From an uncultured Staphylococcaceae bacterium (GTDB lineage Bacteria > Bacillota_I > Bacilli_A > RFN20 > CAG-826), in the NCBI GenBank assembly GCA_964639215.1, contig CAZXCV010000007.1, positions 6,316 through 66,804 of the forward strand: DNA of 60,489 nt, in the 5' to 3' direction. Both the position numbers and the translations under genes were made by a program. This document shows positions 7,832 to 58,370 of the stretch, one piece after another. Positions within the stretch are counted from its first letter, which is position 1; every line of letters begins with the position of its first letter. The notes under the pieces were generated by a model that ran no database searches, had not been told where the DNA came from, and saw only the letters and a list, made by a program, of their open reading frames with translations.

Positions 7832-7925
7832 ATAACCAATAAAAAATAGTTATTGTTCGTTTATTTAATGAGGTTAATCCATCACTTGCATCGTACCTAA
7901 ACGATTGCGTTATTATTAAGCTAAG

Positions 7926-8471
7926 ATGAAACGCCAAATCGATCTTGCATTAACGAGCATACAACAAGGCGAACGTGATGGATTAGCCACTCTATATGAG
8001 CAATCCAACCGCGTCGTCTTTGCCTTTATTTTGCCGCTGATCAATGACTATCAATTAGCCGAGGACATTATGCAAGACACCTACGTTAAGGTTTATCAAT
8101 CGATTGCCTCATATACCAAGGGTACGAATGGTCTGAGTTGGCTCTTAACAATTGCTAAAAACATGGCTTTAACTTTGTTGGAGCGACAAAAACGCGAAGA
8201 AAAAGTCGATTTTGACGCAAGTTATGAGCGAGCTGGAGCGATTATCGAACATCCGAATCTCGACCATCCAACCATCGATTTAGCCAAACGTCTCTTGCCA
8301 AATGATGAGCAACAAATCGTCTTCTTGTATGTCATTGGTGAATATAAACATCGGGAAATTGCCGAATTGCTCAACCTGCCAATCGGAACCGTTACTTGGA
8401 AATATCAGCAGGCGATGAAAAAACTACGTGATTATTATAAGAAAGGGGGAACGCTTAATGAATCGACGTAA
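7926..8471 (+). CDS. ECF-type sigma-70 family RNA polymerase sigma factor
   Basis: 181 aa with region 2 (DIMQDTYVKVY) and region 4 (EIAELLNLPIGTVTWKYQQAMKKL). Confidence 0.85.
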   Translation: MKRQIDLALTSIQQGERDGLATLYEQSNRVVFAFILPLINDYQLAEDIMQDTYVKVYQSIASYTKGTNGLSWLLTIAKNMALTLLERQKREEKVDFDASYERAGAIIEHPNLDHPTIDLAKRLLPNDEQQIVFLYVIGEYKHREIAELLNLPIGTVTWKYQQAMKKLRDYYKKGGTLNEST

Positions 8472-9336: not shown

Positions 9337-9482
9337 TGTTTTTTGATTAGAACCTGCGTTGTTTTCCATTTTTACGTTCAAATATATGCGTCTATGTCAT
9401 CTTTTTAAAAATGTGTGGTAAATAATATTGCATTTTAGTCCGAAATCATCATAATTTTATCTATCGCAATGAGGTAACAATT

Positions 9483-10832
9483 ATGAATGGCAATCGCTAT
9501 ACAAAAAAAGACATTATCCAATTAGCCGCTGACGAAGGCGTCCGCTTTATCCGCCTGCAATTTACCGACATGCTCGGCACGATTAAGGCGGTGGAAATTC
9601 CATCAACCCGACTCGAAGACGCCCTAAACGGCAAAATTATGTTTGATGGTTCATCAATCGAAGGATTCGTTCGTATCAAAGAAGCTGACATGTACTTACG
9701 ACCCGATATCAACTCATGGCTCATCTTAAGCTTTGAAGATATGAACTATGGGAAAGTCGCACGCCTAATTTGTGATGTTTATACCCCTTATGGGAAACCA
9801 TTTCAAGGTGATCCACGTTTCATTTTAAAACGCGCGATTAAAAAAATGAACGATATGGGAATTGCCAATTTGAACATTGGCTTTGAACCAGAATTTTTCT
9901 TATTCAAACTCGACGCCCAAGGTAATCCGAAAACGACATTACCAAATGATGATGGTGGCTATTTTGATATGGCGCCACTTGACGGTGCCGAATACGCGCG
10001 ACGTGACATCGCTCTAGAAATGGAACGACTCGGTTTCATCGTACAAACGAGTCATCATGAAGTCGCTCATGGTCAACACGAAATTAATTTTATGTTCGCC
10101 GATGTCTTGTCGGCCTGCGATAATGTCCAGACATTCAAGCAACTTGTGAAAGTCATCGCCAGACGCCATAACTTATTTGCAACTTTCATGGCGAAACCGA
10201 TTGCCACAGTCAACGGTAACGGGATGCACACCAACTGTTCGCTATCCGATGAAAACGGGAATAATCTTTTCTATGATGAAAATGACAGCATGAAATTATC
10301 GTTATTAGCGCGCAAATGGATTACGGGAATATTGAAACACGCTCGTGGTTTCGCCGCGGTCACGAATCCAACCGTCAACTCATATAAACGGCTAATCCCC
10401 GGATATGAAGCCCCTTGTTATGCTTGTTGGAGCGATGCTAACCGCAGTTCCATGATTCGAATTCCGGCCGCTCGTGGTGAAAGTACACGCACGGAAATCC
10501 GAAATGTCGATCCGATGGCAAACCCCTATCTCGCCCTCGCCGCTATCTTAATGGCGGGACTCGAAGGCATTGAGAATCAATCGAATGAAACACTACCACC
10601 AGTATATGACAACATCTTTTCCTTAACGCGAGAGCAACGTGAAGCTCAAGGCATTCCAAACTTACCCGAAAACTTAAAGGACGCGATTAAAGAACTTAAA
10701 GCTGATCCATTGATGGTTGAAACGCTCGGCGATCACACGATTAATAGATACGTCTACGCTAAAGAACTCGAGTGGGAAGAATATCGCAAGCTCATTACCG
10801 AGTGGGAACTGCGTAAATATTTATCGAACTAA
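9483..10832 (+). CDS. glnA: glutamine synthetase, type I
   Basis: 449 aa, GS-I throughout (FTDMLGTIKAVEIP, HHEVAHGQHEINF, NGNGMHTN, SYKRLIPGYEAP). Confidence 0.95.
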   Translation: MNGNRYTKKDIIQLAADEGVRFIRLQFTDMLGTIKAVEIPSTRLEDALNGKIMFDGSSIEGFVRIKEADMYLRPDINSWLILSFEDMNYGKVARLICDVYTPYGKPFQGDPRFILKRAIKKMNDMGIANLNIGFEPEFFLFKLDAQGNPKTTLPNDDGGYFDMAPLDGAEYARRDIALEMERLGFIVQTSHHEVAHGQHEINFMFADVLSACDNVQTFKQLVKVIARRHNLFATFMAKPIATVNGNGMHTNCSLSDENGNNLFYDENDSMKLSLLARKWITGILKHARGFAAVTNPTVNSYKRLIPGYEAPCYACWSDANRSSMIRIPAARGESTRTEIRNVDPMANPYLALAAILMAGLEGIENQSNETLPPVYDNIFSLTREQREAQGIPNLPENLKDAIKELKADPLMVETLGDHTINRYVYAKELEWEEYRKLITEWELRKYLSN

Positions 10833-19098: not shown

Positions 19099-20209
19099 TT
19101 AAGCACTCCCATGTTTCTTGGCCTCGCTTTCTAAATAACTGTACATAAATTTATCAAGGTGTCCGTCCATCACTTTATGAACATCGCCTTCTTGATAGTC
19201 GGTCCGATGATCTTTGACCATGGTATAGGGACAAAAGACGTATGAACGAATTTGACTTCCCCATTCAATTGTCTTTTGCTCACCGACGATTTTATTCATC
19301 GTCGCTTGTTTTTCTTGCGTTTTTAGTTCATAAAGTTTCGCCTTTAACAAATTAAGGGCAAGCGTCCGATTTTGAAGTTGCGTTCGCGCAGATTGGCTTG
19401 AAGTGACGATGCCTGTTGGAATGTGGGTGATTCTAACAGCCGTTTCAACTTTGTTGACATTTTGGCCGCCGGCGCCACCGCTACGATATGTATCGACTTT
19501 GATATCTTTATCAGCTATTTCAATATCAATCTCATCATTAAATTCGGGAATAACGTTAACCGAGGCAAATGAAGTATGGCGGCGACCATTCGCGTCAAAG
19601 GGCGAAATGCGCACCAAGCGATGGACCCCTTTCTCGCTTTTAAGAAGACCGTAGGCATGATGACCTCTGATGATCATCGTCACGCTTTTTAGCCCGGCTT
19701 CATCACCCGGAATATAATCGAGCACTTCCATCTCAAATTGCTTTTCTTCAGCCCATCGGACATACATCCGATAAAGCATGTCGGCCCAGTCGGTTGATTC
19801 AGTGCCTCCAGCACCTGGATGTATTTCAATAATCGTGTTAAGTGCATCAAATTCATGGGCAAACAGGAGTGTAATCCGCATTTGTTCCACAGCTTCTTTC
19901 AAAGTCAGTAATTCTCTTGCTGCTTCAATAAGTAATGCCGGATCATCTTCGGCGAGGAGCACAAGTTCCTTCAGATCTTTGTAAGTCGTTTGAATATATT
20001 GGGCGCGTTCGAATAAGCGCTCGTTTTCTTTTAAGCGTGAAGTAATCGTTTTGGCTGTTTTGGAATCTGCCCAGAAATCATCAGCTTCCATTAAGTGATG
20101 ATCAGTTTTTATGGCGTTGGCGAGTCGATCCAGGTCAAAGTGAATCACTGACTTGCTGCACGAGTGGCGCTAAGTCATTTAACTCCGTTTTTATCGCAAG
20201 ATATTCCAT
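19099..20209 (-). CDS. prfB: peptide chain release factor 2, expressed via programmed +1 frameshift
   Basis: Frame 0 encodes [24 protein letters not shown] and then CTT TGA C. The +1 frame continues [10 protein letters not shown]... through the SPF tripeptide (ISPFDA) and GGQ (here GGQNVNK). Confidence 0.95.
20134..20140 (-). promoter_or_regulatory. prfB +1 programmed ribosomal frameshift site (CTT TGA C)
   Basis: The coding strand reads TCA CTT TGA CCT, the canonical autoregulatory RF2 recoding heptamer. Confidence 0.9.
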
Positions 20210-22615
20210 TTAGGCGTCTCCTTTTGGAGTTTCCGTTACTTGATTTTCATCAACTGGCGGGACGCTGTCTTGTTTCCGCACCTCAATTTTAGCATTGAGT
20301 AAGTTTAAAATAACCTCAACGGCAATCGTTTCATTGCATTCTTGGAAAAGACGATAACCCTCATTGACATAATCTTGTAATGGATTCGTGTTCGCATAGC
20401 TACGTAAGTGAATACCTTCACGCAAATGCTCCATCGTATCAATGTGCTTCGTCCAGTTGCGGTCAATTGAACGCAGTGAAATTTGCCGCTCAATTTGGTT
20501 GGAAACTTCAGATGGCCATTCATTTCGGCGTTTCTTATAATTGTTAATCATTAATAGTGACAAATCCTCAGCCACTTCTTCAAGTGGTGATTCTTCGTAG
20601 GCTGCTGGCTTAATTGTCCCTTCAGGCAAAAAGCGTGGTTCCACTTCTTTTTTTAGCAATTGGCCATGGACCGTACGACTCCGATCATCTGGTTCGATCG
20701 CTTTATTAGCTAAAAACGACCCCGCTAAATCAAAGAAATCTTGGATTAAATAATTAATTTCTGACGCGTACAAAATATCATCGCGCTTCTTATAAGTGAT
20801 TGAACGTTGTTTTGCCAAGACATCATCGTATTCAAGGAGGTTTTTCCGAGCATCGAAGTTTTGTCCTTCAATTCGTTTTTGTGCTGAAGTTATTGATTTC
20901 ATAACTAAGGTATTTTCAATTGCTTCATCGCCAAGTTTGGCAAAAATATTGCGTAGACCATCACTTCCAAAGCGAATCATCAATTCATCATCTAGACTCA
21001 CATAAAAACGAGAGTAACCAGGATCGCCTTGACGACCGCTACGACCACGAAGTTGGTTGTCAATTCGGCGTGATTCATGACGCTCCGTGCCAAACACGCA
21101 TAATCCGCCAATTTTTTTAATTTCGTCATTGATTTTTATATCGGTTCCACGGCCAGCCATATTGGTGGCAAGCGTAATCATGCCTTTTTCGCCCGCATGT
21201 TTAATGATGTCGGCTTCGCGGGCGTGATTTTTCGCGTTTAAGAGTTCGTGCTTCAAACCTTCTTTTGTTAAAATCGCGCTTAATTCCTCAGACGCTTCCA
21301 CTGATGGTGTCCCAATGAGGATTGGTTGTCCGATTTGATGCCGTTCTTTAAGCTCGTTAATAAGCGCTTTTAATTTAGCCTGTTTATTTGCATAAACGAG
21401 ATCGACGGCATCGTTACGAGCAATTGGACGATTAGTCGGAATCACGATGACGCGCATGTTATAGATTTTACGGAATTCTTCTTCTTCGGTTTTCGCGGTG
21501 CCGGTCATTCCCGACAATTTTTTATACAGTCGGAAGAAATTTTGATAAGTGATTGTCGCTAAAGTAATCGTCTCCTGCTTGATTTCGACGCTTTCTTTTG
21601 CTTGGATTGCTTGATGAAGGCCATCGCTATATTCACGGCCTTTTAAAATGCGACCTGTAAATTGGTCAATCAGCTGAATCGCGCGATCAGCATCAACCAT
21701 GTATTCAACATCACGCATCATAATATAGTTTGCTTTGAGCGCTTGATGAATCCGGTGCACCAAATCGGCGTATTGTGGATCATATAAATTTTTGACCCCA
21801 AACATCCGCTCAGCCATGTTGTTTCCTTCATCAGTTAAGTTGCATGTTTTTGTTTTAATATCGACGGTAAAATGCTTTTCACGTCTGAGTGTCTTCACAA
21901 AACGATCGGCAATATTGTATTGACTTGCCGTGGCTTTCGCACCACCAGATATAATTAATGGTGTGCGTGATTCATCAATGAGAATCGAGTCGGCTTCATC
22001 GATAATCGCATATTCAAGACCACGCAAGACGCGATCAGGGACGCGGCTTGCCATATTGTCGCGAAGATAATCAAATCCAACTTCTGAATTTGTCGTGTAA
22101 GTAATATCGCATAAATATGCCGCTTGTTTTTCACTCGTTGTTTTTTCACGTAAATTAACACCGACTGTCAAGCCCAAGAAACGATAAATTTGACCCATCC
22201 ACTCAGCATCACGACTCGCTAGGTATTCGTTAACCGTTACGACATGAACGCCTTTTCCTTGCAATGCATTCAGGTAGACCGCCATCGTTGCTGTTAACGT
22301 CTTGCCTTCACCAGTTTTCATTTCCGCAACATCGCCTTCGTGTAAGGCTAATGCGCCTATAACTTGTACTTTAAATGGAAATTCTCCAAGTGTTCGCTTG
22401 GCTGCTTCGCGACTCACGGCAAACGCTTCGTACTTAATATCACTCAGTGTTTTACCATTCGCTAACAGCTCACGAAAATATGGTGTTTTCGCCTTTAATT
22501 CTTCGTCGCTCAAAGTGGCCATCTGCGCTTCATACGCTAGTACTTGCATGGCTTCTTTTTCTAATTTCTTCAAGGCACGGGCATCAATCCGTAACAATTT
22601 ATCTAAAAATCCCAA
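20210..22615 (-). CDS. secA: preprotein translocase ATPase SecA
   Basis: 801 aa with the DEAD-like motor (MKTGEGKTL, DEADSILIDE) and preprotein cross-linking and helical scaffold domains. Its TAA stop abuts the prfB ATG. Confidence 0.95.
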   Translation of the reverse strand: MGFLDKLLRIDARALKKLEKEAMQVLAYEAQMATLSDEELKAKTPYFRELLANGKTLSDIKYEAFAVSREAAKRTLGEFPFKVQVIGALALHEGDVAEMKTGEGKTLTATMAVYLNALQGKGVHVVTVNEYLASRDAEWMGQIYRFLGLTVGVNLREKTTSEKQAAYLCDITYTTNSEVGFDYLRDNMASRVPDRVLRGLEYAIIDEADSILIDESRTPLIISGGAKATASQYNIADRFVKTLRREKHFTVDIKTKTCNLTDEGNNMAERMFGVKNLYDPQYADLVHRIHQALKANYIMMRDVEYMVDADRAIQLIDQFTGRILKGREYSDGLHQAIQAKESVEIKQETITLATITYQNFFRLYKKLSGMTGTAKTEEEEFRKIYNMRVIVIPTNRPIARNDAVDLVYANKQAKLKALINELKERHQIGQPILIGTPSVEASEELSAILTKEGLKHELLNAKNHAREADIIKHAGEKGMITLATNMAGRGTDIKINDEIKKIGGLCVFGTERHESRRIDNQLRGRSGRQGDPGYSRFYVSLDDELMIRFGSDGLRNIFAKLGDEAIENTLVMKSITSAQKRIEGQNFDARKNLLEYDDVLAKQRSITYKKRDDILYASEINYLIQDFFDLAGSFLANKAIEPDDRSRTVHGQLLKKEVEPRFLPEGTIKPAAYEESPLEEVAEDLSLLMINNYKKRRNEWPSEVSNQIERQISLRSIDRNWTKHIDTMEHLREGIHLRSYANTNPLQDYVNEGYRLFQECNETIAVEVILNLLNAKIEVRKQDSVPPVDENQVTETPKGDA

Positions 22616-46945: not shown

Positions 46946-48688
46946 TTAAATCGTATTCACACCGAGAATAAAAGCCGCGCTTGACACTGTAAAACGCTCA
47001 GATTCTTTGTATAAATACCCATTTATGTAACGAAGATATAACGTAAAATCAAACCCGTTATTACTACCGGTGTAGGTCATTTCCGTTAAAGTATAACCTT
47101 CTTTGCCACGCTCAACATTGTCATAGAAATATGCCGCAACATCATACATGTCAAACGTAATGTCGATATTATCATTCGTTAACTGATAAATACTTCCGGT
47201 CACCGTTATTGATAATAATAGATCACTGCCACTCTCGAGTGGTAACGGAGTGATATCATACAAAAAATCGAATGTTGAAAAACTATTAAGATCGATAGCA
47301 ATCGTGTCCAGTTGATAATTGACGAATTGATACTCTTGTTCACCGCCACCAATGTAGAAAAACGGAAAACCAAAGACGGTTTCAAAATCAAGATAGGTGT
47401 AATTATCGGGTAGATATTTAAGTCGATGAACACCTATTTCATCAGCTTTGATGATTAATCTGACAATTGCTTCTTTTTCGGAAAGGGTTAAATCATCACG
47501 TGGCACAATTTGATTATCAACTAGCATATTGTTGCTAGTTAGAATCGCTTTAAATTCGGCATTATATTGATACGTCGCTATGTTAATAACATTAATGAAT
47601 GGGAAAAACATAATTAGAAACAGTGTATCCGCCCCTGATAAGAAAAATATCTGCCCACGACTCATCTTGAAAAGTGGTCGTTTTATGATATTGATGATTA
47701 GGACAGCGATTAACCAAATGCCTAAATACACCGATGTCATGTGCATCATGATGAAACCATCAGTGATAATTTGACGGATTACTTCAACGATATAACCGAT
47801 CATCACTGGCGCGAACACATACGGCCAATATTTGGCATAAATCGTTAAATGTGGGGTGTCTTTTATAAATGGATCGAGGGCAATCAAAGCCGCAAAACCC
47901 CCACCACCAACAACAATCGTCGCAATGACAAATACCTCAGGATAATAATTTTGATTAAATGATGATGTGATGATGTATATGAGAAGAATCATCGTAAATA
48001 CCGTCACAACCGGGACGATTATTAATGAGAAAACCGTTTTCCAAATCTTGTGATAATCGTCGATTGTTAGCTCTTGATCTTGCATTGGGATAAAGCCAAG
48101 GAAAATTGGAATGGCGACCAAATTAGCAATGATAATTAAAAGGTTTAAGTAAATATATGTGCCAAAATCGATATTAAATAGCGATTCCATGGCAACAAAA
48201 ATTGCGACAAGGGAGCCATAAAGTACGCCGGCATAGAAAAGCGTGGCGAATAGTTTCGTTGCGAGATACATCACATAGATTGAAAAGTTTTGGCGCCTTG
48301 GAAAATACGCTACGCATAATGCCAGAACACTAATGATGCCGAGCAAAGCTGCAAACCGGAAATTTTCAATGTAGCGAGAGCCTTCGAGTGGTCCAACAAA
48401 GTAATAAACAAGCGCACCGATGACGCTTAAACCCATCAGTGCATATCGATGCCATGTTTTTAGTTTGAAGCGAGCGACAATTAATGTCATCAATAACATG
48501 AGTGAAAGCAACAACCAAAGTGATTTTAAAATCGGATTAAATATTTGACGTAATTGGGTTTCATTACTCGTTATTTGTAAGACGATGATGATGAGACTAA
48601 CAACAACGGCTTCGGTAAATCGCGAAAAACTTCGCAAAAACGGATCAATCAACGCGGTCTTCATGAATAAGACAAATTTATTAGTCAT
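46946..48688 (-). CDS. DUF4153-like polytopic membrane protein with C-terminal soluble domain
   Basis: 580 aa with about 12 TM helices followed by a soluble domain of about 190 aa. Its stop lies 10 nt upstream of the namA start. The family assignment is from memory. Confidence 0.45.
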   Translation of the reverse strand: MTNKFVLFMKTALIDPFLRSFSRFTEAVVVSLIIIVLQITSNETQLRQIFNPILKSLWLLLSLMLLMTLIVARFKLKTWHRYALMGLSVIGALVYYFVGPLEGSRYIENFRFAALLGIISVLALCVAYFPRRQNFSIYVMYLATKLFATLFYAGVLYGSLVAIFVAMESLFNIDFGTYIYLNLLIIIANLVAIPIFLGFIPMQDQELTIDDYHKIWKTVFSLIIVPVVTVFTMILLIYIITSSFNQNYYPEVFVIATIVVGGGGFAALIALDPFIKDTPHLTIYAKYWPYVFAPVMIGYIVEVIRQIITDGFIMMHMTSVYLGIWLIAVLIINIIKRPLFKMSRGQIFFLSGADTLFLIMFFPFINVINIATYQYNAEFKAILTSNNMLVDNQIVPRDDLTLSEKEAIVRLIIKADEIGVHRLKYLPDNYTYLDFETVFGFPFFYIGGGEQEYQFVNYQLDTIAIDLNSFSTFDFLYDITPLPLESGSDLLLSITVTGSIYQLTNDNIDITFDMYDVAAYFYDNVERGKEGYTLTEMTYTGSNNGFDFTLYLRYINGYLYKESERFTVSSAAFILGVNTI

Positions 48689-48767: not shown

Positions 48768-49265
48768 TTATCGGCGATTATTTTGGTTGTCATGAAGACA
48801 ATCATCAATCATCAACATCAGCGCGATGAGCAGTTCTGTTTTGCTTTCATCATGAATGGTAATTTCATAAGTATCGCCCCACGATAACCATTTTTTGTGC
48901 ACTTCAAGTAATGTGGTTTCACCTTGTTTTACCTCAAAGTCATGCCCCCACATATTGCCTTCCATCTCTAACTCTCCAAGCGTGGACTCGATATGGAATT
49001 TATGTTTCATGAACGCAAATTTCTTCTGGACAGTCGCCGTTTCTTCACCATTAACTCCAAGCAGACGATACTTAGGCATGAAGGAAAATAATTTCCGTTT
49101 AATCGTGTAAAGATGCTCTTTTCCTTCGGTTTTATAAAAATCCATTTGCCGTGAAAAACTAAAAAGTTTGCCTTCGCAGTAATAAGTAATCTGTTGCTGT
49201 TCGTCATAAACTTTATAGCGATCTCTAAATGCAAACACTTTTTGCTTCAAATAGTATTTTTTCAT
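48768..49265 (-). CDS. LURP-one-related / YxjI (tubby C-terminal-like, DUF567) protein
   Basis: 165 aa. The start pattern YYLKQKVFAFRDRYKVYDE and repeated beta-hairpin pattern are typical of the family. Confidence 0.65.
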   Translation of the reverse strand: MKKYYLKQKVFAFRDRYKVYDEQQQITYYCEGKLFSFSRQMDFYKTEGKEHLYTIKRKLFSFMPKYRLLGVNGEETATVQKKFAFMKHKFHIESTLGELEMEGNMWGHDFEVKQGETTLLEVHKKWLSWGDTYEITIHDESKTELLIALMLMIDDCLHDNQNNRR

Positions 49266-49386: not shown

Positions 49387-50205
49387 TTAGGATGGTTGCA
49401 TCGCGCCGAAGAGCACAAGCCATGCGAGGATTGATTTAGCAACGAGCGATAACACGATATAAACGCGTTCTCCGTATAAATAGTCTTTCCATTTTCCGAC
49501 TTTGAGATATTGGAGAATCATGTTGATCGGGAAGGTGTTGAAAGCGACGAAATAGGTGCCAACAATCGCCCAAACGAACCATGGGACTTGATCATAATTT
49601 CCTGTACCAAACATATAAATCATAATGACAGCCCAGGGTGTTAAACCAGCGATCGTTCCCCAAACAAATGGACCCCAATCGAGGTGCTTTCGATCTTTGC
49701 CAACATTCAATTGTTCCATCACAAGACCAAACAAATTCATCGCGGCATTAACGACAAATATTAGTATCAGTGAGGCGATGTCTTTAACCCCAAATAACGT
49801 GGAAATTAAGACAATCATGACCGAACTAGATAACGCATATTCAAACCATCGGAATTTGTTAATCCCGACTTTTAAGTCGCGTTCATATATCGCATACGTG
49901 GGTTTTGGGAGCGAAATAAGGGCGTGGGCTAGTGCTGAAATAATGAGGAATGAAGCGACAAGCACACCAAACGGTAAATTGAATAGGAATTGAGAATCGA
50001 CAACCAAAGCTTGGGTCGGAACATCATAACGAATAAAGAATTGAACGATTTGAGGTTGGAATTCGGCAATCTTCTGAATGACTGTTCCCGCGAGAATGAG
50101 CATGATGAGGCCTTGTAATAAGTGCACGGCACCCATGATCACATTGAAGCGACGTAAACGGTCCATCTCAGTCGCCCCTTTAAAGAAGGCAAAGTATTGT
50201 TTCAT
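49387..50205 (-). CDS. heliorhodopsin
   Basis: 272 aa with 7 TM helices. It closely matches my recollection of HeR 48C12: FNVIMGAVHLLQG (conserved His), FRWFEYALSSSVMIVL (counterion Glu), VNAAMNLFG and GERVYIVLSLVAKSILAW (Schiff-base Lys). RBS AAAGGAG. Confidence 0.85.
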   Translation of the reverse strand: MKQYFAFFKGATEMDRLRRFNVIMGAVHLLQGLIMLILAGTVIQKIAEFQPQIVQFFIRYDVPTQALVVDSQFLFNLPFGVLVASFLIISALAHALISLPKPTYAIYERDLKVGINKFRWFEYALSSSVMIVLISTLFGVKDIASLILIFVVNAAMNLFGLVMEQLNVGKDRKHLDWGPFVWGTIAGLTPWAVIMIYMFGTGNYDQVPWFVWAIVGTYFVAFNTFPINMILQYLKVGKWKDYLYGERVYIVLSLVAKSILAWLVLFGAMQPS

Positions 50206-50494
50206 GGTTAATTTCTCCTTTTTTATAAAAAATATTATACGAATTCGAAATATTTTTTTCTAATGAAATGCTCAACTTTTTTAATGACTAACTTTTACTT
50301 TATTTTTTTTATTTAAAACGACTGAAGACCATTAATAATTTTTAAAAATCGGTAGCGTGATTAACGTGAGTTAATGATTTCTAATATATCCTTGTGCTTT
50401 TTTATTTTGTGCGGCTTAGCCGAGCTAATTCACGGTGCGGAGTAATATCGCTACTTGATATTTATATTTGAAGTGCTATCATAAAAGCAAAGAG

Positions 50495-50510
50495 TCGGTC
50501 ATTTGACCGA
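50495..50510. promoter_or_regulatory. perfect 7-2-7 inverted repeat, candidate TetR operator
   Basis: TCGGTCA TT TGACCGA ends 9 nt before the TetR ATG. It lies downstream of a candidate promoter (TTGATA, 16-nt spacer, TATCAT at 50455-50482). Confidence 0.5.
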
Positions 50511-50518
50511 GAAACATT

Positions 50519-51094
50519 ATGGGTCGTCCGTTAGGATACATAAACAAAACCACGATTCTTGAGGCAGTTGGTCGGCTAATCGCCACGCGAGGCATTAACC
50601 AAGTTTCTTTGCGTGATATCGCCAAAGAAACAAAACTGAGTCCTGGCACTTTGTATTATTACTATGCGACAAAAGATGAGCTGGTCTTCGATATCATCGC
50701 CAAACATATCGATGAATTAAAAGATGAATATCTTGCATGGATTGGACGACACGAACATGACTTAACAGTCGATCGCTTTTTAGAAGTCATCTTTTTTAAG
50801 GGAGTCAAACTATTCAACCGCGCGCGGTTACATATTTTTATTATTAATCAATGTATGGCTGACAATGAGACATTAAAACAACGATTTAATGACAAATATT
50901 CCGAATGGCGAACCGCGCTTCGTCAAGGTGTCATCAATATTTTTCCAAATCATCATGATCCTGAAGCATTTGCGACGCTTCTTTTGACAATTATCGATGG
51001 CCTAGTCATCCAAGAAGTTTTGAATCTGCCGGAAATCGATCAAACCCGACTCATTAACCTCGTCAAGCGGATGGGAGATTCCACGATTGAATAA
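50519..51094 (+). CDS. TetR/AcrR-family transcriptional regulator
   Basis: It has the N-terminal HTH (VSLRDIAKETKLSPGTLYYYY). Confidence 0.9.
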   Translation: MGRPLGYINKTTILEAVGRLIATRGINQVSLRDIAKETKLSPGTLYYYYATKDELVFDIIAKHIDELKDEYLAWIGRHEHDLTVDRFLEVIFFKGVKLFNRARLHIFIINQCMADNETLKQRFNDKYSEWRTALRQGVINIFPNHHDPEAFATLLLTIIDGLVIQEVLNLPEIDQTRLINLVKRMGDSTIE

Positions 51095-52814
51095 GCAAAA
51101 ATTGTTAAAACAGACGATTAAGCAAATCGAGCTTTCATTTCCGAAAGTCAACGTTAATGTTCGTGACAACATCATCTTTCTTGATGGCGAACTCTCAAAT
51201 TATGACGAAATTGTTGCGGTGGGCTATTTAGCGGCAAAAGCAAAAACCGAAGGTGTTGTTAATCGGATTAAATTATCGGGTTATCAAGAAGAACCTATGC
51301 GTATTTCACCCGAAAATGACATGAAGTATGATGGTACGTCATGTGATGTTTTGATTATTGGAGCTGGTATTTGTGGTGCGGCAATCGCACGAGAAATGAG
51401 CAAATATAAGTTAAAAACAATCGTGATTGAAAAAGAAAATGACGTTGGCCTTCATGCGAGTAGTCGCAATGATGGCGTCATTCATGTTGGGATTGATCTT
51501 AAGGTCAACACCGAGAAACACCGTTACCTTCGGCAAGCAGTGGCGATGTATCCAAAGCTGGCATCTGAATTACATATTCCATACATACAACGTGGTCAAC
51601 TTGTCGTGTTTTCTAAAGCATGGCTGCGCCCATTGATGTTCATCTTTCGCAAGATGGCGAAAAAGCGTAATATTCACGGTTTTGAAATTTGGAATCACCA
51701 GCGTTTAATGAAGGAAGAACCGCAACTAGGACCAGATGCGAAATTTGGCATTATTTTTAAAGAAGGGGCAAATATTTGTCCATATGAGACCGTCATTGCA
51801 CTTTCAGAAAACGCGATTGAAAACGGTGTGACTTTCTATCTTGATACCGCACTACTTGACATGGTAGTGACTAATGGCGTCATTAAGAAAGTTAGCACAA
51901 ATCATGGGACAATTTATCCAAAAATCGTCATCAATGCTGCTGGAACATTTTCTGATAAAGTCGCTGCTTTGGCTCATGATCAATTTTATACAATTCATCC
52001 ACGCCTTGGGATTGAAGCAATTCTAGATAAAAAGGCGAAGTCCCGCTCTTCATCACGCTCTGTATCAATGTATCGAGGAAGTCACGATCGGAAAAAAGAC
52101 CACACGAAAGGTGGCGGCATTATTCCAACGGTTGACGGTAACGTATTAATCGGGCCAACCGCTGTTGAAACACCCGAACGTGAAAATTTTGAAACCGATG
52201 CTGAAAGTATTGATGTATTATTTGCAAAGCATCATCCGACATTGCCAAAACTAGGCAAGCCCGACGTTATTACCTACTTTGCCGGCATTCGAGCTGCAAC
52301 TTATGAAGAAGATTTTATCGTTAGAATTGGTAAATGGACGCAGAACATCATCCACGTAGCCGGCATTCAATCACCTGGGCTGACCGCAGCACCAGCGATT
52401 GCCGTGACTGTCGCTAATTTAGTTGCTCGCCTCCATGGTGCGCCATTACCATTAAATGAGACATTTGATCCGATTCGGAAAGTAAGACCTCCGCTTCACA
52501 GTTTGTCACTGAATGAACGTCATCGCCACATTCTCGAAAATCCCGATGATGGTCAAATTGTTTGCCGTTGTGAAGAAATATCTCGAGGTGAAATAATCGC
52601 AGCATTGCATCGTCCACTAGTCGTCCCAACAATCGATGGCATCAAACGGCGCGTTCGTGCTGGTATGGGGCGTTGCCAGGGTGGTTTTTGCGGACCATTA
52701 ATTACCAAAATCATTCACGAGGAATTAGACATTCCCTATCTAAATATTTATAAAAAAGGTCATGGCCACATTATTTTGCGAGAGACAAAGGAAGCAACTT
52801 ATGGCGAACTATGA
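51087..52814 (+). CDS. BON-domain-fused FAD-dependent dehydrogenase (GlpA / glycerol-3-phosphate dehydrogenase-like) with BFD-like [2Fe-2S] domain
   Basis: The TTG start is 8 nt after GGGAGA. Residues 1 to about 66 fit the BON pattern (VNVNVRDNIIFLDGELSNYDEIVAVGYLAAKAKTEGVVNRIKL). The FAD motif is DVLIIGAGICGAA and the C-terminal BFD motif is CRCEEISRGEI...GMGRCQGGFC. Confidence 0.75.
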   Translation: MNKQKLLKQTIKQIELSFPKVNVNVRDNIIFLDGELSNYDEIVAVGYLAAKAKTEGVVNRIKLSGYQEEPMRISPENDMKYDGTSCDVLIIGAGICGAAIAREMSKYKLKTIVIEKENDVGLHASSRNDGVIHVGIDLKVNTEKHRYLRQAVAMYPKLASELHIPYIQRGQLVVFSKAWLRPLMFIFRKMAKKRNIHGFEIWNHQRLMKEEPQLGPDAKFGIIFKEGANICPYETVIALSENAIENGVTFYLDTALLDMVVTNGVIKKVSTNHGTIYPKIVINAAGTFSDKVAALAHDQFYTIHPRLGIEAILDKKAKSRSSSRSVSMYRGSHDRKKDHTKGGGIIPTVDGNVLIGPTAVETPERENFETDAESIDVLFAKHHPTLPKLGKPDVITYFAGIRAATYEEDFIVRIGKWTQNIIHVAGIQSPGLTAAPAIAVTVANLVARLHGAPLPLNETFDPIRKVRPPLHSLSLNERHRHILENPDDGQIVCRCEEISRGEIIAALHRPLVVPTIDGIKRRVRAGMGRCQGGFCGPLITKIIHEELDIPYLNIYKKGHGHIILRETKEATYGEL

Positions 52815-54048
52815 CATTATCATCATTGGAGGCGGACCCGCTGGTTTGGCAGCCGCTTTAAAATTAGGTCAAACATCAACCTCCGCTCTACTGATTGAGC
52901 GTGAAGCACGACTGGGCGGCATATTAAAACAATGCATCCATGATGGATTTGGCCTCTTGCGTTTTAATGAAAAATTAAGTGGGCCTGAATATGCCGAACG
53001 TGAAATTGAAGCGCTTAATGCCAGTAACGTTACGGTCAAGACCTTAACGTTTGTCACTGACATCAAAAAGCGCGATGTTGGTTTTGAATTAACGTTAATT
53101 ACCCGCCAAGGCATTGAAATTATTACTGGCAAGCGCTTGATATTAGCAACCGGTTGCCGTGAACGCACCTCAAAACAAGTCGCGATTCATGGAACTAATC
53201 CTAGTGGTGTCCTCACCGCAGGGAGCGCCCAATACTATATGAATATTTTGGGACAAATGCCGACCAAACGTTGTGTGATTTTAGGAAGTGGCGATATCGG
53301 TTTAATCATGGCTCGTCGCATTACGCTTGAGGGAGGTCAAGTGCTGGGCGTCTATGAAATCAAAGACCAACCTTCGGGGTTAACGCGCAACCTCATTCAA
53401 TGTCTCGAAGATTACAATATTCCGCTATATCTCAAAACGACAGTCACGCGCGTGTTCGGTCATGACCGCCTGACTGGGGTGGAAATCGCCCAAGTCGATG
53501 AAAAAATGCAACCCATTAAGGGAAGCGAACAATATCTGGCATGTGATGCACTCATCTTATCAGTCGGCCTAATCCCAGAAAATGAAATGGCTGAAAAACT
53601 TGAGGTCCCAATCAATCCAAAAACCAAAGGTCCATATGTTGACCAAGGGATGGAAACGTTAATTAGTGGGATCTACTGTTCCGGTAATGCTCTTCATGTC
53701 AGTGATGTCGCTGATCTTGTGTCTGAAACAGGCGAAATGGCTGCGTTAACTGCCCAAAATTATCAAAAACAATCGCGAAACCTTATTGAAATTGATATTA
53801 ATGAACGTATGGCATATGTCGTGCCTTCTCATCTTGATTTAAATAAACCGCACGATAAAGTCATCTTCTATTTCCGCTCACGCACTTGTCTTAGCAATCA
53901 ACAGCTAAAAATTTATGCTGGTGACCAATTGCTTTTATCACGAAAATATCGCAATGTACGACCACCGGAGATGGAACGGATTATTGTCGATTTAACAAAA
54001 GCAAAAAATCTTTCGACATTAAAACTACAATTGGAGGATGAATCATGA
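52801..54048 (+). CDS. pyridine-nucleotide-disulfide-family FAD/NAD(P) oxidoreductase
   Basis: The start was chosen at MANYDIIIIGGGPAGLAAA. A second Rossmann motif is VILGSGDIGLIMA. This is the usual partner of GlpA-like and DUF1667 genes. Confidence 0.8.
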   Translation: MANYDIIIIGGGPAGLAAALKLGQTSTSALLIEREARLGGILKQCIHDGFGLLRFNEKLSGPEYAEREIEALNASNVTVKTLTFVTDIKKRDVGFELTLITRQGIEIITGKRLILATGCRERTSKQVAIHGTNPSGVLTAGSAQYYMNILGQMPTKRCVILGSGDIGLIMARRITLEGGQVLGVYEIKDQPSGLTRNLIQCLEDYNIPLYLKTTVTRVFGHDRLTGVEIAQVDEKMQPIKGSEQYLACDALILSVGLIPENEMAEKLEVPINPKTKGPYVDQGMETLISGIYCSGNALHVSDVADLVSETGEMAALTAQNYQKQSRNLIEIDINERMAYVVPSHLDLNKPHDKVIFYFRSRTCLSNQQLKIYAGDQLLLSRKYRNVRPPEMERIIVDLTKAKNLSTLKLQLEDES

Positions 54049-54410
54049 AAGACGTAATTTGCATCGTGTGTCCGAATTCTTGTCACCTCCAAGTCGATCC
54101 GAAAACAAACAATGTAATCGGGCAACTTTGTCCTCGTGGCGAAGCTTATGCTATCCAAGAAATCACAAATCCAAAGCGTTCAATTACCTCAAGTGTGAAA
54201 ACAATATACAAAGAGCAACCACTCATTAGTGTGCGCACTGTAAGTGAAGTAAATAAAAACCTAATTCCGATGATTATGCAAGAAATCAAAAAAATCGTCC
54301 TTGATAAACCATTGCCAAGAGCGACTGTTATCATTGAAAATGTAGCTGGTAGCGGTGTTGATATCATCACGACAACTACTTTGCATAAAGGAGATAGTTA
54401 TGAATCGTAA
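54045..54410 (+). CDS. DUF1667-domain protein
   Basis: 121 aa with the N-terminal Cys motif CIVCPNSCHL...CPRG. It is the third member of the conserved trio. Confidence 0.75.
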   Translation: MKDVICIVCPNSCHLQVDPKTNNVIGQLCPRGEAYAIQEITNPKRSITSSVKTIYKEQPLISVRTVSEVNKNLIPMIMQEIKKIVLDKPLPRATVIIENVAGSGVDIITTTTLHKGDSYES

Positions 54411-55953
54411 TCCACTTGTTCTAACGTTTGATTGTGGGACGCAGAGCATTCGCGCTTTAATATTCGATCAAACTGGGGCGCTTCTTGCAAAAGAACAACA
54501 TTCGTTTACTCCCTATTATTCACTCAAACCTGGTTATACCGAACAAAAACCAGCGGTATATCGCGATGCCTTAAAACGCGTTTCTACTCAAATTATTGCT
54601 AATAACCCGAACTTAAAAGCTTCAATTGTTGCAGTAACAATTACGACGATTCGTGATACGTGCGTCTGTCTTGATGAGAATGGAGAGCCGCTGCGCGACA
54701 TTATCGTTTGGCTCGACCAACGCATGGCGCAGTGCTCTAATAAATTACCGGCTGTTTCACGCGCCTTATTTGCCGTCGCGGGAATGACAGATGCCATTGC
54801 CGACCAACGAAAAATAACTAAAAGCAACTGGCTGATCGAAAACGAACCCGAACTATGGAATAATACCGTTAAATATGTGATGTTCTCGACATATATGGTG
54901 TCACTATTAATCGGTAAAATCATCGATAGTTCCGCGAGTCAAATCGGACACATTCCGTTTGATTTTAAGAATAAGGCTTGGTATCAACCATCCCATTTCA
55001 AGTTTCCAATCTTCAATGTTCCACTTGAGAAACTACCTCCGATTATCGAACCGGGCGAGACGCTTGGTTATATTAGTAAAGCGGCAAGTCTTGAGTTTGG
55101 GTTACCTGAAGGATTACCACTAATTGCTACTGGTTCTGATAAAGGCTGTGAAACACTAGGGACTGGCGTTGTTGATACGACGATGGCTTCCTTAAGTTTT
55201 GGCACGACGGCGACGATTCAAACGACAACAAGGAAGTACCTTGAACCAGTCCAATTCATGCCGGCATATCCTGGCGTCGCCCCCGGTACCTATAATCCCG
55301 AGATTCAAATTTACCGAGGTTATTGGATGGTCAGTTGGTTTAAAAAAGAATTTGCAAGTAAAGAGGTTAATGAGGCGCCACAACTTGGATTATCACCAGA
55401 ACAATTATTAAATCAACGGCTCAAGGAAATTCCGCCCGGTTGCGATGGGTTATTATTACAGCCGTATTGGGCGCCACTACTCAAGAGTCCAGAAGCCAAA
55501 GGGGCAATTATCGGCTTTTCCGGTGATCACACGCGCATTCATATCTATAAGGCGATCATTGAAGGAATCGGTTATGGTCTGATTGATGGGCTTCGCCATC
55601 TCGAAAAACGTCTCCATCATAAAATAAGAGGATTAACCGTATCTGGTGGCGGTTCGCAAAGCGATGAAATTTGTCAAATAACGGCCGATATGTTCGGATT
55701 ACCTGTATCCAAGATTCAAACGTATGAAGCTTGTGGTCTTGGTAGCTCGCTCGTCGCCTTTGTGGCTTTAGGGATTCATAAAACATACGAAGATGCAGTA
55801 AAAGAAATGGTGCATTACGAAAAAGTTTATCAACCAAATGATGATGTTCATCGTATCTATGACCGTCTGTACCGAAAGGTATACACAAAAATATATCCAT
55901 CCCTTCGTCCCCTCTACCGCGAATTAAGAAAATTTGAACAAGACAAGGAGTAA
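54400..55953 (+). CDS. FGGY-family carbohydrate/polyol kinase (not a canonical GlpK)
   Basis: The start was chosen at MNRNPLVLTFDCGTQSIRALIFD. It has FGGY N- and C-terminal domains (GSDKGCETLG, VSGGGSQSD). Confidence 0.8.
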   Translation: MNRNPLVLTFDCGTQSIRALIFDQTGALLAKEQHSFTPYYSLKPGYTEQKPAVYRDALKRVSTQIIANNPNLKASIVAVTITTIRDTCVCLDENGEPLRDIIVWLDQRMAQCSNKLPAVSRALFAVAGMTDAIADQRKITKSNWLIENEPELWNNTVKYVMFSTYMVSLLIGKIIDSSASQIGHIPFDFKNKAWYQPSHFKFPIFNVPLEKLPPIIEPGETLGYISKAASLEFGLPEGLPLIATGSDKGCETLGTGVVDTTMASLSFGTTATIQTTTRKYLEPVQFMPAYPGVAPGTYNPEIQIYRGYWMVSWFKKEFASKEVNEAPQLGLSPEQLLNQRLKEIPPGCDGLLLQPYWAPLLKSPEAKGAIIGFSGDHTRIHIYKAIIEGIGYGLIDGLRHLEKRLHHKIRGLTVSGGGSQSDEICQITADMFGLPVSKIQTYEACGLGSSLVAFVALGIHKTYEDAVKEMVHYEKVYQPNDDVHRIYDRLYRKVYTKIYPSLRPLYRELRKFEQDKE

Positions 55954-55957
55954 CCTT

Positions 55958-57691
55958 ATGAGCAATAAACCTTACAAAGGCTATGAACCACAATGGATTG
56001 CCAGACCAGCACCAGCCAATTCATTTCGCTCAATTTTTCGCTGGGGTGACCCCAATTATTACAAATGGCCGAAAGAAACTTTATTCAAAGCCATCAAGGA
56101 AAAATTTGGCTTAACCGATGATGATTTCAAGAAGTATGATGGGGATCTCGGATTCGGAGAAGTAAAATATCATGTGCCTTCAATGATTGAGGAGCGTCAC
56201 ATCGAGGCATTTAAAAAGATAGTCGGCGTTAATTTTGTTCGGGTCGATGATTATGCTCGTCTTAGCGTCGCTTATGGTAAAACGATGTTTGACGTTTTAC
56301 GAATTCGTCAGCAAATTATCGAAAATCTGCCTGATGTCGTCTTATATCCCGATGACCGTGAACAAATCGAGGCAATTGTTGCTTACTGCGTCAAAGAAAA
56401 AATCCCGGTCTATGTTTATGGAGGCGGGTCAAGTGTCACTCGCGGTGTTGAATGTATGAAGGGTGGCGTATCGCTTGATATGCGACTACGCTTCAACAAG
56501 GTTGTCAGCTTCAACGAGATTGACCAAACGATTACCGTGCAAGCAGGTATGAGCGGTCCGCAACTCGAAACCGCATTAAATGAAGCGCCAGTTCGCTTTA
56601 AAGCAAAACGCCAATACACATGTGGTCATTTTCCCCAGTCGTTTGAATATAGTTCTGTCGGAGGTTGGGTCGTGACCCGTGGTGCTGGGCAAAATAGCAC
56701 TTATTATGGAAAAATTGAAGATTTGGTACTTGAACAGAAATATGCCACCCCAATTGGAAATATCGTGACGTCCCCTTATCCACGCGAAGCGACCGGTCCT
56801 TCGCTCAACCATATCATGATGGGATCTGAAGGCGCTTTTGGTGTTTTAACCGATGTCACGCTCCGAATATTTCGACTGACAAAAGCCAATCGCAAGAAAT
56901 TTTCTTATATGTTCAAAACTTGGGATGATGGCATGGCGGCCACACGCGAAATGATGCAATGTGAAGCTGGATTTGCCTCGGTGTTCCGTCTTTCAGATGC
57001 TGAAGAAACCGATGTAATGATGCGCTTATATAATGTCGATGAATCGCCACTTGCCCCCATTTTTAAAATGCGTGGGATGAAACCGATGGAACGCTGTTTA
57101 TTTTTGGGTTGGAGTGAGGGTGAAAAAGGCTTTGCCAAAAATGTCGCCCGAAACATCCATCGCATTGCCCGAAAACACGGGGGCATGAATTTAACAAGCA
57201 TTGTCACAAACGCATGGGAACATGGACGGTTTACCGACCCCTATTTACGTGATTCGATGCAAGATTTTGGCATCTTAACCGACACGCTCGAATGCAGCGT
57301 CTTATGGTCAAACATGGAACAAGTTCATCAAGCTGTGCGCACTTATTGTAAATCACGTCCACAAACGATTGTGACGACTCACCTATCACACGCTTATCCT
57401 CAAGGCGCCAACCTCTATTTCATTTTCATTACGAAGATGAACGATATTGATGACTATCTTGCCTACCACTCGGGTATTCTTGATGCGATTCAAGCTTCAG
57501 GCGCGAGCATGAGCCATCATCACGGGATTGGTAAAATGTTCGGGCGCTGGTTAGAAGGTTCACTTGGAAGCATTGAATACAGTGTTTTAAAAGCATTGAA
57601 ACAGCATTTTGATCCTGACAATTTAATGAATCCTGGTGGAACATTGGGATTTGATTTACCTAAAGAGAAACTTAAGTTTTTAAAAAAATAA
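55958..57691 (+). CDS. FAD-linked oxidase, alkyl-dihydroxyacetonephosphate-synthase-like
   Basis: The start is after AAGGAG. It has an N-terminal extension of about 100 aa (FRWGDPNYYKWP) and a PCMH-type FAD-binding domain (YVYGGGSSVTRG). The C-terminal motif HHHGIG is typical of AGPS/GlcD-like enzymes. Confidence 0.7.
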   Translation: MSNKPYKGYEPQWIARPAPANSFRSIFRWGDPNYYKWPKETLFKAIKEKFGLTDDDFKKYDGDLGFGEVKYHVPSMIEERHIEAFKKIVGVNFVRVDDYARLSVAYGKTMFDVLRIRQQIIENLPDVVLYPDDREQIEAIVAYCVKEKIPVYVYGGGSSVTRGVECMKGGVSLDMRLRFNKVVSFNEIDQTITVQAGMSGPQLETALNEAPVRFKAKRQYTCGHFPQSFEYSSVGGWVVTRGAGQNSTYYGKIEDLVLEQKYATPIGNIVTSPYPREATGPSLNHIMMGSEGAFGVLTDVTLRIFRLTKANRKKFSYMFKTWDDGMAATREMMQCEAGFASVFRLSDAEETDVMMRLYNVDESPLAPIFKMRGMKPMERCLFLGWSEGEKGFAKNVARNIHRIARKHGGMNLTSIVTNAWEHGRFTDPYLRDSMQDFGILTDTLECSVLWSNMEQVHQAVRTYCKSRPQTIVTTHLSHAYPQGANLYFIFITKMNDIDDYLAYHSGILDAIQASGASMSHHHGIGKMFGRWLEGSLGSIEYSVLKALKQHFDPDNLMNPGGTLGFDLPKEKLKFLKK

Positions 57692-57702
57692 CTTAGATTA
57701 AA

Positions 57703-57735
57703 CGAGTGTTGCTGAGCAACCTCGCTTTTTCTTTT
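57703..57735 (+). terminator. rho-independent terminator ending the TetR-to-AGPS-like operon
   Basis: The hairpin CGAGTGTTGC TGA GCAACCTCG is followed by CTTTTTCTTTT. Confidence 0.7.
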
Positions 57736-57749
57736 GCTACAATATTTAT

Positions 57750-58370
57750 ATGGAACGCATTCATATTTATAAACAAGGCGCGGCCGACCATCCAGTCTTC
57801 CTATTACTACACGGCACTGGTGGTAGCGAATCTGATTTAATCGATATCGCTCATTTCATCGATGCTAAGGCGACGATTCTCAGCTTGCGTGGCGAAGTAA
57901 CTGAAGATGGTCTTACCAGACATTCCAAACGTTTCGGTCCGATGACATTCGATCAACTTGACTTAAATAAGCGAACGCATGATTTGCAACATTTTATTGA
58001 ATGGGCAGCACCTCATTATGGTTTGGATATTCATCAAATTATAGGAATCGGTTATTCTAACGGCGCGAATCTATTGGCAAGTCACATGTTTCGCTATCCA
58101 CAAGCGATTAAAGGCGCCATCTTATTCCATCCGATGAGTGGTGGCGAAATTAGTGATGTGCCTAATTTATTTCAGCTACCAATATTTATTGGCGCTGGAA
58201 ATAACGACCCCATCTGTCCCCCTGAAATGACCGCAGATTTGCAGCAGAAATTACAAAAGTTTGGGGCTAATGTCTCGCTGTCATGGCATAACTACGGTCA
58301 CCAATTATCTTATGAAGAAATTCAAAAAGCCGGGAGTTGGTATATCAAACATTTTGTATCATCAACTTAA
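57750..58370 (+). CDS. alpha/beta hydrolase (phospholipase/carboxylesterase family)
   Basis: 206 aa with the HG oxyanion motif (LLHGTGG), the nucleophile elbow GYSNGAN, and a distal D and H. Confidence 0.75.
   Translation: MERIHIYKQGAADHPVFLLLHGTGGSESDLIDIAHFIDAKATILSLRGEVTEDGLTRHSKRFGPMTFDQLDLNKRTHDLQHFIEWAAPHYGLDIHQIIGIGYSNGANLLASHMFRYPQAIKGAILFHPMSGGEISDVPNLFQLPIFIGAGNNDPICPPEMTADLQQKLQKFGANVSLSWHNYGHQLSYEEIQKAGSWYIKHFVSST

Follow-up and report, generated by a model that had tools for sequence, protein, structure and literature searches.

The window analyzed here is a 60,489-nucleotide stretch of a contig from an uncultured Staphylococcaceae bacterium. At positions 50519 to 57691 it carries a compact group of six genes for a TetR-family regulator, a trio resembling the FngABC glycerol-3-phosphate oxidoreductase, an FGGY-family kinase, and a flavoenzyme of the alkyl-dihydroxyacetonephosphate synthase (AGPS) family (Table 1). 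An earlier note, made from the sequence alone, had described these genes as lying on one strand with overlapping or nearly abutting junctions, bounded by a candidate operator/promoter and a terminator. We reproduced all of its coordinates and junctions (overlaps of 8, 14, 4, and 11 nt in gene order, then a gap of 4 nt), and we detected a promoter-like site, a palindrome, and a stem followed by a T-run at the two ends. Profile searches returned the domain content that had been assigned to each of the six proteins.

Table 1. Features of the six-gene operon, in window positions
Feature	Position	Strand	Basis
Candidate sigma-70-type promoter, extended -10: TTGATA, 16 nt, TGcTATCAT	50455-50482	+	Consensus match only, 10/12 + TG
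Candidate TetR operator, perfect 7+2+7 palindrome TCGGTCA-tt-TGACCGA	50495-50510	.	Unique in window
tetR, TetR-family regulator, 191 aa	50519-51094	+	TetR_N 1.5e-12, TetR_C_6 7e-08
fngA-like, FngA/GlpA-like FAD dehydrogenase, 575 aa, TTG start	51087-52814	+	DAO 1.3e-54, Fer2_BFD 1.1e-11
BON-like domain of the FngA-like subunit, residues 1 to ~85	51087-51341	+	Fold, Pfam matches of orthologues
fngB-like, NAD(P)/FAD oxidoreductase, 415 aa	52801-54048	+	Pyr_redox_2 5.5e-27
fngC-like DUF1667 protein, 121 aa	54045-54410	+	DUF1667 9.1e-26
FGGY-family kinase, 517 aa	54400-55953	+	FGGY_N + FGGY_C
AGPS-family (alkyl-DHAP-synthase-like) flavoenzyme, 577 aa	55958-57691	+	PF01565 (FAD_binding_4) 7e-31, PF02913 (FAD-oxidase_C) 2e-27
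Intrinsic terminator, stem 57708-57720 then T-run	57703-57735	+	Sequence reading and terminator scan

A Shine-Dalgarno sequence lies 6 to 10 nt before the chosen start in all five enzyme genes, and the TTG start of fngA is consistent with the N termini of 37 orthologues. Promoter-like and terminator-like matches inside the operon did not exceed the expectation from shuffled sequence. From this arrangement we infer that the six genes are co-transcribed as a single TetR-repressed operon.

The candidate promoter is the top-scoring promoter-like site between positions 50150 and 57850, and the palindrome is located 13 nt past its -10 element and 8 nt before the tetR ATG. With up to two mismatches allowed, 0.08 matches to the palindrome would be expected in the window by chance. 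At the same tolerance, it is found within ∼150 nt upstream of fngA or tetR at 13 other loci from different lineages, with about 8 further matches elsewhere in 1.38 Mb. Because it recurs upstream of the module and has few matches elsewhere, TCGGTCA-nn-TGACCGA makes a convincing candidate for a conserved TetR operator. The regulator itself reached the cut-off of no NCBIfam equivalog model. A near-copy of the palindrome, TCGG-n6-TGACCGA, occurs at one fixed position of the AGPS-like coding region (11307 in locus L001, 11313 in L007, 11298 in L027, and about 10 others); these copies probably come from a conserved codon stretch and do not represent a second operator.

The last gene encodes an AGPS-family flavoenzyme

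By its matches to solved structures and the residues it keeps, the product of the last gene clearly belongs to the AGPS family, as the earlier note had suspected. Its closest relatives in the PDB are the AGPS entries 2uuu from Dictyostelium (E value of 5.9e-62) and 4bby from guinea pig (2.3e-61), which share ∼30% identity with it over ∼480 residues and stand 40 orders of magnitude nearer than D-lactate dehydrogenase (3.6e-20). Matches to D-lactate dehydrogenase and glycolate oxidase cover the FAD domain only (E values of 1e-17 to 1e-20), and the GlcD model TIGR00387 gave 112 bits against a cut-off of 568. The low GlcD score and the confinement of these matches to the FAD domain ruled out an identity as GlcD or D-lactate dehydrogenase. 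AGPS has a specific N-terminal domain with a gating helix and a hydrophobic tunnel that takes a C16 chain; the alignment to it begins at query residue 73 to 92, which places part of this N-terminal region in the aligned stretch.

In Dictyostelium AGPS, mutagenesis has demonstrated the importance of Arg352, Arg447, Tyr508, and the HHH loop (PMC3509576). These align with R344, R431, Y487, and H520-H522 of the window protein, so that every known catalytic residue is kept, and the same positions are conserved in 42 to 44 of 44 diverse homologues. A quick maximum-likelihood tree with support from the Shimodaira-Hasegawa-like approximate likelihood ratio test (SH-aLRT) placed the window protein in a clade of FngABC- or FGGY-linked enzymes (SH-aLRT of 100), with the forms fused to GlpD or to an acyltransferase in the other half of the tree. 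The protein thus shares with characterized AGPS (also ADPS; EC 2.5.1.26) its two-domain VAO-type architecture and the Arg/Arg/Tyr/HHH set, but differs from it in belonging to a separate, tightly conserved bacterial clade and in its genetic partners, which are an FGGY kinase and a dehydrogenase of the glycerol-3-phosphate type where AGPS has a DHAP acyltransferase (GNPAT) and a fatty-acyl reductase (FAR). It also differs in occurring in strict anaerobes, and its host in the present case lacks fatty-acid synthesis.

The AGPS-like gene is linked to a dehydrogenase across distant lineages

To our collection of relatives of the flavoenzyme we admitted one genome per species, which yielded at least 599 proteins, and we compared the gene neighborhoods of the best 80 (56 to 71% identical). 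Their sources are Bacillota (Clostridia, Bacilli, and Anaeroplasmataceae), Treponema, Brachyspira, Thermotogae, Anaerolineae, Caldisericota, and other bins. The block of six genes described in the earlier note proved to be conserved to different degrees in its parts. FngA, FngB, and FngC genes stand directly upstream of the AGPS-like gene in approximately 70 of the 80 loci, and this adjacency spans Bacillota, Treponema, Thermotogae, Caldisericota, Brevinematales, and Fibrobacterota-type bins; in about the same number of loci, the protein neighboring FngA is 50 to 60% identical to the FngB-like protein of the window. An FGGY kinase gene adjoins the AGPS-like gene, before or after it, in 50 loci, and in about 30 a tetR gene, codirectional or divergent, flanks the module. 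Since many loci lack the kinase, the invariant core consists of the dehydrogenase and the AGPS-like enzyme.

The same pairing occurs with a different dehydrogenase. Two Anaerolineae loci carry a GlpD-type enzyme (DAO plus DAO_C) in place of FngABC, together with the same oxidase and kinase, and in the only one of them that extends upstream (L071) a GntR/FadR_C-type regulator precedes the dehydrogenase gene. Five loci have an operon that opens with an AMP-binding enzyme whose best matches are long-chain fatty-acid-CoA ligases, all below cut-off. Further afield, homologues of ∼1,100 residues that are 31 to 36% identical to the window protein are fused to a GlpD/GlpO-type dehydrogenase in Calditrichota, Fidelibacterota, and Planctomycetes. 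Such fusions link AGPS-type enzyme and dehydrogenase step independently of the operon. Acyltransferase, SDR, and HAD genes follow one of them downstream, and one distant AGPS-like homologue is fused to a PlsC-type acyltransferase. A third kind of fusion is seen in two metagenomic homologues (P0129 and P0147), which carry an N-terminal NUDIX hydrolase domain fused to the AGPS-like part.

The FngABC-like trio carries an additional N-terminal domain

The three proteins encoded after TetR are adjacent subunits in FngABC order, namely, a DAO protein with a BFD-type [2Fe-2S] domain, a Pyr_redox_2 protein, and a DUF1667 protein. FngABC has been purified from Pyrococcus furiosus (October 2026) as a ferredoxin- and NAD-dependent electron-bifurcating glycerol-3-phosphate oxidoreductase, with the DUF1667 protein FngC as its third subunit, and it is the GPDH/NOX/MOX complex of Thermococcus under another name (PMC13689815). 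The phrase "generally assumed," with which the earlier note had qualified glycerol-3-phosphate oxidation by such trios, is outdated now that the complex is characterized. Among bacterial FngABC sets, 32% are not linked to glycerol genes; many of these are found beside sugar kinases, and other polyol derivatives have been proposed as their substrates (PMC13689815).

The trio of the operon does not adjoin GlpK, the usual neighbor where glycerol-3-phosphate is the substrate. Its FngA has the type 2 glycerol-3-phosphate oxidase as best NCBIfam match, at 197 bits against a cut-off of 460, compared to 303 bits for a second FngA encoded elsewhere in the genome. Relative to the Pyrococcus complex, subunits and order are the same; the differences are the link to a non-GlpK kinase, the lower glycerol-3-phosphate oxidase score, and an N-terminal extension of FngA. 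The substrate of the operon's complex is probably something other than plain glycerol-3-phosphate.

The extension, a domain of ∼85 residues, is present on all AGPS-linked FngA orthologues and missing from the second FngA of the genome. In the predicted structure of the operon's FngA (predicted local distance difference test [pLDDT] of 90), it adopts an alpha-beta-beta-alpha-beta topology with a pLDDT of ∼95. BON domains are folds of ∼65 residues with the topology alpha-beta-beta-alpha-beta and a conserved Gly. The top Foldseek matches included OsmY (E value of 5e-04, TM-score of 0.58), DolP, BonA, and the B domain of Rv0899; phospholipid binding is mentioned in the title of 7a2d, the DolP entry from Escherichia coli. 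The Pfam BON profile (PF04972) was matched by 19 of 32 FngA orthologues, with a best E value of 6.3e-05. Topology, structural matches, and orthologue profile matches thus agree in predicting that the extension is a BON domain. Such a domain on a cytoplasmic dehydrogenase suggests association with the membrane or with phospholipid.

The FGGY kinase falls outside the glycerol kinases

The earlier note had judged the kinase to be unlike glycerol kinase, and its scores bear this out. We judged subfamily membership by the cut-offs of curated hidden Markov models (HMMs). Against the two GlpK models the kinase gave 138 bits for a cut-off of 590 (TIGR01311) and 125 bits for a cut-off of 498 (NF000756), and it also stayed below the cut-offs of the other FGGY equivalogs (XylB, 221/380; GntK, 155/649; LsrK, 149/528; FucK, 119/471). 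A genuine GlpK is encoded on another contig of the genome.

We compared the glycerol pocket with that of this GlpK, presuming that the roles of the residues follow those in E. coli GlpK. The glycerol-site Arg, the Trp, and the catalytic Asp are kept; Asp replaces Glu84, the Tyr135 segment is absent, and Phe270 is substituted. These changes would be weakly suggestive of a glycerol-like head group that bears a larger substituent.

The host genome encodes a separate GlpK and a second FngABC and lacks fatty-acid synthesis

The host genome, from an apparently anaerobic member of the Bacilli, measures 1.11 Mb and is 98.8% complete, with uncultured "Bacilli bacterium" bins as closest relatives. Its GlpK gene stands alone on contig C21 and scores 690 bits (TIGR01311) and 763 bits (NF000756). 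The second FngABC is encoded between the pnp and RNase J genes on the minus strand of contig C1 (positions 79985 to 83020; positions 6983 to 10048 of locus L084), with no adjoining kinase gene, and probably works together with the stand-alone GlpK. A small genome of a fatty-acid auxotroph that keeps two kinase/dehydrogenase sets argues that the operon does not serve simple glycerol burning. We also noted a third flavoprotein set on the plus strand of contig C13 (positions 19682 to 22550; locus L085), in which a Rossmann protein resembling FngB is accompanied by a BFD-like piece and by a DAO protein of 403 aa.

No ketoacyl synthase was found in this nearly complete genome, and by its gene content the host is a predicted fatty-acid auxotroph, unable to make fatty acids itself. 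The absence of a ketoacyl synthase next to the presence of five PF01553 acyltransferase genes, none of them in the operon, suggests heavy dependence on scavenged lipids. The genome contains neither a PlsA-type (HGD-D) plasmalogen enzyme nor a MIP-family glycerol facilitator. Its only NAD_binding_4 matches are open reading frames (ORFs) of 338 to 350 aa, which appear to be of the SDR type and not fatty-acyl reductases.

The genes flanking the operon are of several kinds. Divergently upstream lies a heliorhodopsin gene (positions 49387 to 50205, minus strand; Pfam E value of 1.9e-94, NCBIfam HeR score of 293 bits), followed by a LURP-one-related gene (48768 to 49265, minus strand) and a 580-aa ORF without any Pfam or NCBIfam match (46946 to 48688, minus strand). 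Downstream, 15 nt past the terminator, starts a gene for an MhqD-like alpha/beta hydrolase of the phospholipase/carboxylesterase family (Abhydrolase_2; 57735 to 58370, plus strand). It has TGcTACAAT just before its ATG and no Shine-Dalgarno sequence, an arrangement that the earlier reading of the sequence had separately marked as a leaderless candidate. An MhqD-like esterase gene beside the module is not conserved in the 80 loci.

A possible route for oxygen-free processing of substituted glycerol phosphates

The reading that we favor, tentatively and at somewhat less than an even chance, is that the module processes 1-O-substituted glycerol phosphates without oxygen by way of a dihydroxyacetone phosphate (DHAP)-type intermediate. 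In this scheme, the FGGY kinase would act on a glycerol-type alcohol substituted at O-1 and phosphorylate its free primary hydroxyl. The FngABC-type complex, whose family chemistry is known, would then interconvert the sn-glycerol-3-phosphate- and dihydroxyacetone-phosphate-type forms with NAD and ferredoxin, and the BON domain may hold its catalytic FngA subunit at the membrane. The AGPS-type enzyme, which retains the residues for it, would finally apply the AGPS mechanism: deprotonation at C1, formation of an N5-flavin adduct, and expulsion of the oxygen substituent of C1. The outcome would be that the C1 substituent is exchanged or removed (acyl versus alkyl, or alkyl/acyl versus water), so that ether or ester bonds of glycerol may be formed, exchanged, or cleaved by the module in the absence of oxygen. 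The likeliest substrates would be lyso-lipid-like 1-O-acyl or 1-O-alkyl glycerol phosphates, and in a 1.1-Mb host auxotrophic for fatty acids the role would be salvage or remodeling of exogenous glycerolipids.

The order of reactions proposed in the earlier note (alcohol, phosphate ester, keto-phosphate, and then an AGPS-type step) gains support from the strong conservation of synteny, from the non-orthologous replacement of FngABC by a GlpD-type enzyme, and from the AGPS-like/GlpD fusions. Between the ether-lipid and polyol options that it offered, we lean toward a lipid-like 1-O-substituted glycerol over a free polyol because of the BON domain, the ligase-like and FadR-type neighbors in some lineages, the lack of conserved transporters in the 80 neighborhoods, the lipid-scavenging host, and the context of a related operon in Pseudomonas aeruginosa.

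That operon, PA3026-PA3024, forms with PA3023 the regulon of GliR (PA3027), adjoins a YegS-like lipid kinase gene, and is co-activated with phospholipase C; a role in glycerolipid metabolism has been proposed for it, with an ether-lipid pathway drawn from KEGG, and a deletion mutant still grows on glycerol and has no Biolog phenotype (PMC8151288). According to the annotation in that paper, it shares with the window operon a triad of AGPS-annotated FAD oxidase, glycerol-3-phosphate dehydrogenase homologue, and FGGY kinase, together with a dedicated regulator. It differs in its aerobic host, its GlpD-type dehydrogenase, its AraC-type activator in place of a TetR repressor, and its YegS-like neighbor. 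Our literature search on a bacterial AGPS-like/FGGY/glycerol-3-phosphate-dehydrogenase pathway, on erythritol use, and on Rv2251/Rv3107c returned no functional study beyond this one (PMC8151288). The individual enzymes are of known families, and their combination is undescribed for anaerobes, with PA3026-PA3024 as the sole experimental touch. What is new here is the BON domain on FngA, the conserved operator, the argument from paralogues in a nearly complete genome, and the link to the FngABC family.

Within the favored reading, a more specific version is oxygen-independent ether-lipid catabolism or salvage, in which an FGGY alkylglycerol (or lyso-glycerolipid) kinase would feed a membrane-tethered, electron-bifurcating FngABC that oxidizes 1-O-alkyl-glycerol-3-phosphate to alkyl-DHAP, and the AGPS-type enzyme, running in reverse, would release the fatty alcohol. 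We hold this version to be rather unlikely as it stands, and equally doubtful is its corollary that the kinase would be the first bacterial alkylglycerol (or lyso-glycerolipid) kinase.

Several observations weigh against a lipid-like substrate, and the hints in its favor are all indirect. We know of no FGGY kinase that acts on a lipid; characterized members take water-soluble sugars or polyols. The proposed first step is not universal, as about 30 of the 80 genomes have no kinase gene at the locus, and among five such loci checked genome-wide, a close orthologue was found elsewhere in two and none in three. The window copy of FngA matches PF04972 poorly (E value of 0.025, 15 bits against a cut-off of 27), a match seen only at E ≤1 and not at the default Pfam threshold, and a BON fold alone is no proof of lipid binding. 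The ligase-like gene and the FadR-type regulator are confined to minorities of loci, and no fatty-acyl reductase that could supply a fatty alcohol was found in the 80 neighborhoods.

The nearest competitor to the favored reading is catabolism of a small water-soluble polyol, with the kinase producing a polyol phosphate, FngABC a ketose phosphate, and the AGPS-like enzyme carrying out a new, non-lipid reaction; we give it a minor share of the probability. The combination of repressor and kinase follows the usual logic of catabolic operons, FGGY kinases use sugars or polyols, and xylulokinase was the best model for this one. The substrates proposed for FngABC sets outside glycerol loci and the separation of the FngABC-linked clade from the acyltransferase-fused, classical-looking homologues point the same way. 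Set against this, the 80 neighborhoods share no conserved gene for a transporter of sugars or polyols or for an isomerase, aldolase, or epimerase, the core survives without the kinase in many genomes, and the AGPS-like enzyme has kept the full catalytic set of AGPS, with the HHH loop and the arginines that bind phosphate. The lack of a phenotype of the Pseudomonas deletion on Biolog plates or glycerol is a further point against it (PMC8151288). The Brucella operon for erythritol offers a concrete model that we could compare. There, the kinase EryA and the glycerol-3-phosphate-dehydrogenase-like enzyme EryB are followed by EryC and by TpiA2 and RpiB for the racemase/isomerase steps. The first two steps resemble those proposed here (polyol kinase, then FAD-dependent oxidation to a keto-phosphate), whereas EryC, TpiA2, and RpiB have no counterpart in the 80 neighborhoods and the AGPS-like flavoenzyme stands in their place. 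Erythritol-type racemase genes are not conserved there either, and with neither isomerase nor racemase genes conserved in these neighborhoods we rejected the erythritol-type reading.

De novo ether-lipid synthesis of the animal or myxobacterial type, the option that the earlier note had put first, appears still less probable. It would lead from glycerol through glycerol-3-phosphate, DHAP, and acyl-DHAP to the AGPS exchange, in which acyl-DHAP and a fatty alcohol yield alkyl-DHAP and a fatty acid. Membership in the AGPS family with intact catalytic residues speaks for it. The scheme also accords with distant homologues that carry a fused PlsC-type acyltransferase or have acyltransferase, SDR, and HAD genes nearby, and with the identical pathway drawn for PA3026-PA3024 (PMC8151288). 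The window protein, though, lies outside the clade of the acyltransferase-fused homologue, and neither a DHAP acyltransferase nor a fatty-acyl reductase gene is linked to the module in any of the 80 loci. The host has no ketoacyl synthase and no fatty-acid synthesis. As a central metabolite, DHAP does not require an operon to supply it, and GlpK and the second FngABC are already there for that task. A substrate-type repressor and a kinase, moreover, suit salvage better than biosynthesis.

Plain use of glycerol, alone or with lactate or glycolate, is the least probable of the explanations and in our view very improbable. It would cast the kinase as a divergent glycerol kinase, FngABC as acting on glycerol-3-phosphate, and the flavoenzyme as an unrelated 2-hydroxy-acid dehydrogenase. 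The kinase does keep the Arg, Trp, and catalytic Asp that we take to serve the glycerol site of GlpK. The Pyrococcus complex, too, oxidizes glycerol-3-phosphate (PMC13689815). The earlier note would have given up its own proposal for such a cluster if the kinase fell within GlpK and the oxidase within the lactate/glycolate dehydrogenases, and by HMM cut-offs and PDB matches neither protein does. The true GlpK, a second and more canonical FngABC, and the failure to find a glycerol facilitator in the genome all speak against it, as do the far closer kinship of the oxidase with AGPS than with D-lactate dehydrogenase or GlcD and the fusion of AGPS-like oxidase and dehydrogenase in other lineages.

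Implications for glycerolipid metabolism in anaerobes

AGPS chemistry is known as a route to ether lipids in eukaryotes and myxobacteria of the oxygen era, and anaerobes are thought to make ether lipids by unrelated, reductive enzymes (PlsAR and Ger). Alkylglycerol monooxygenase depends on O2. A tightly conserved AGPS-type enzyme, coupled genetically to a glycerol-phosphate-type dehydrogenase across hundreds of strict anaerobes, points to a step of glycerolipid metabolism that has escaped notice in the microbiomes of gut, rumen, and sediment, and its retention in a 1.1-Mb genome without fatty-acid synthesis indicates the same. If the catabolic ether-lipid version were true, the module would be an anaerobic counterpart of alkylglycerol monooxygenase that is widespread in gut and sediment anaerobes. 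The conserved operator and its TetR regulator provide a direct experimental handle on the inducer. Identifying the step would give a function to a large class of proteins now annotated "FAD-binding oxidoreductase" or "FGGY carbohydrate kinase," would add a second substrate to the FngABC bifurcating family, and might account for ether-lipid turnover in the absence of oxygen.

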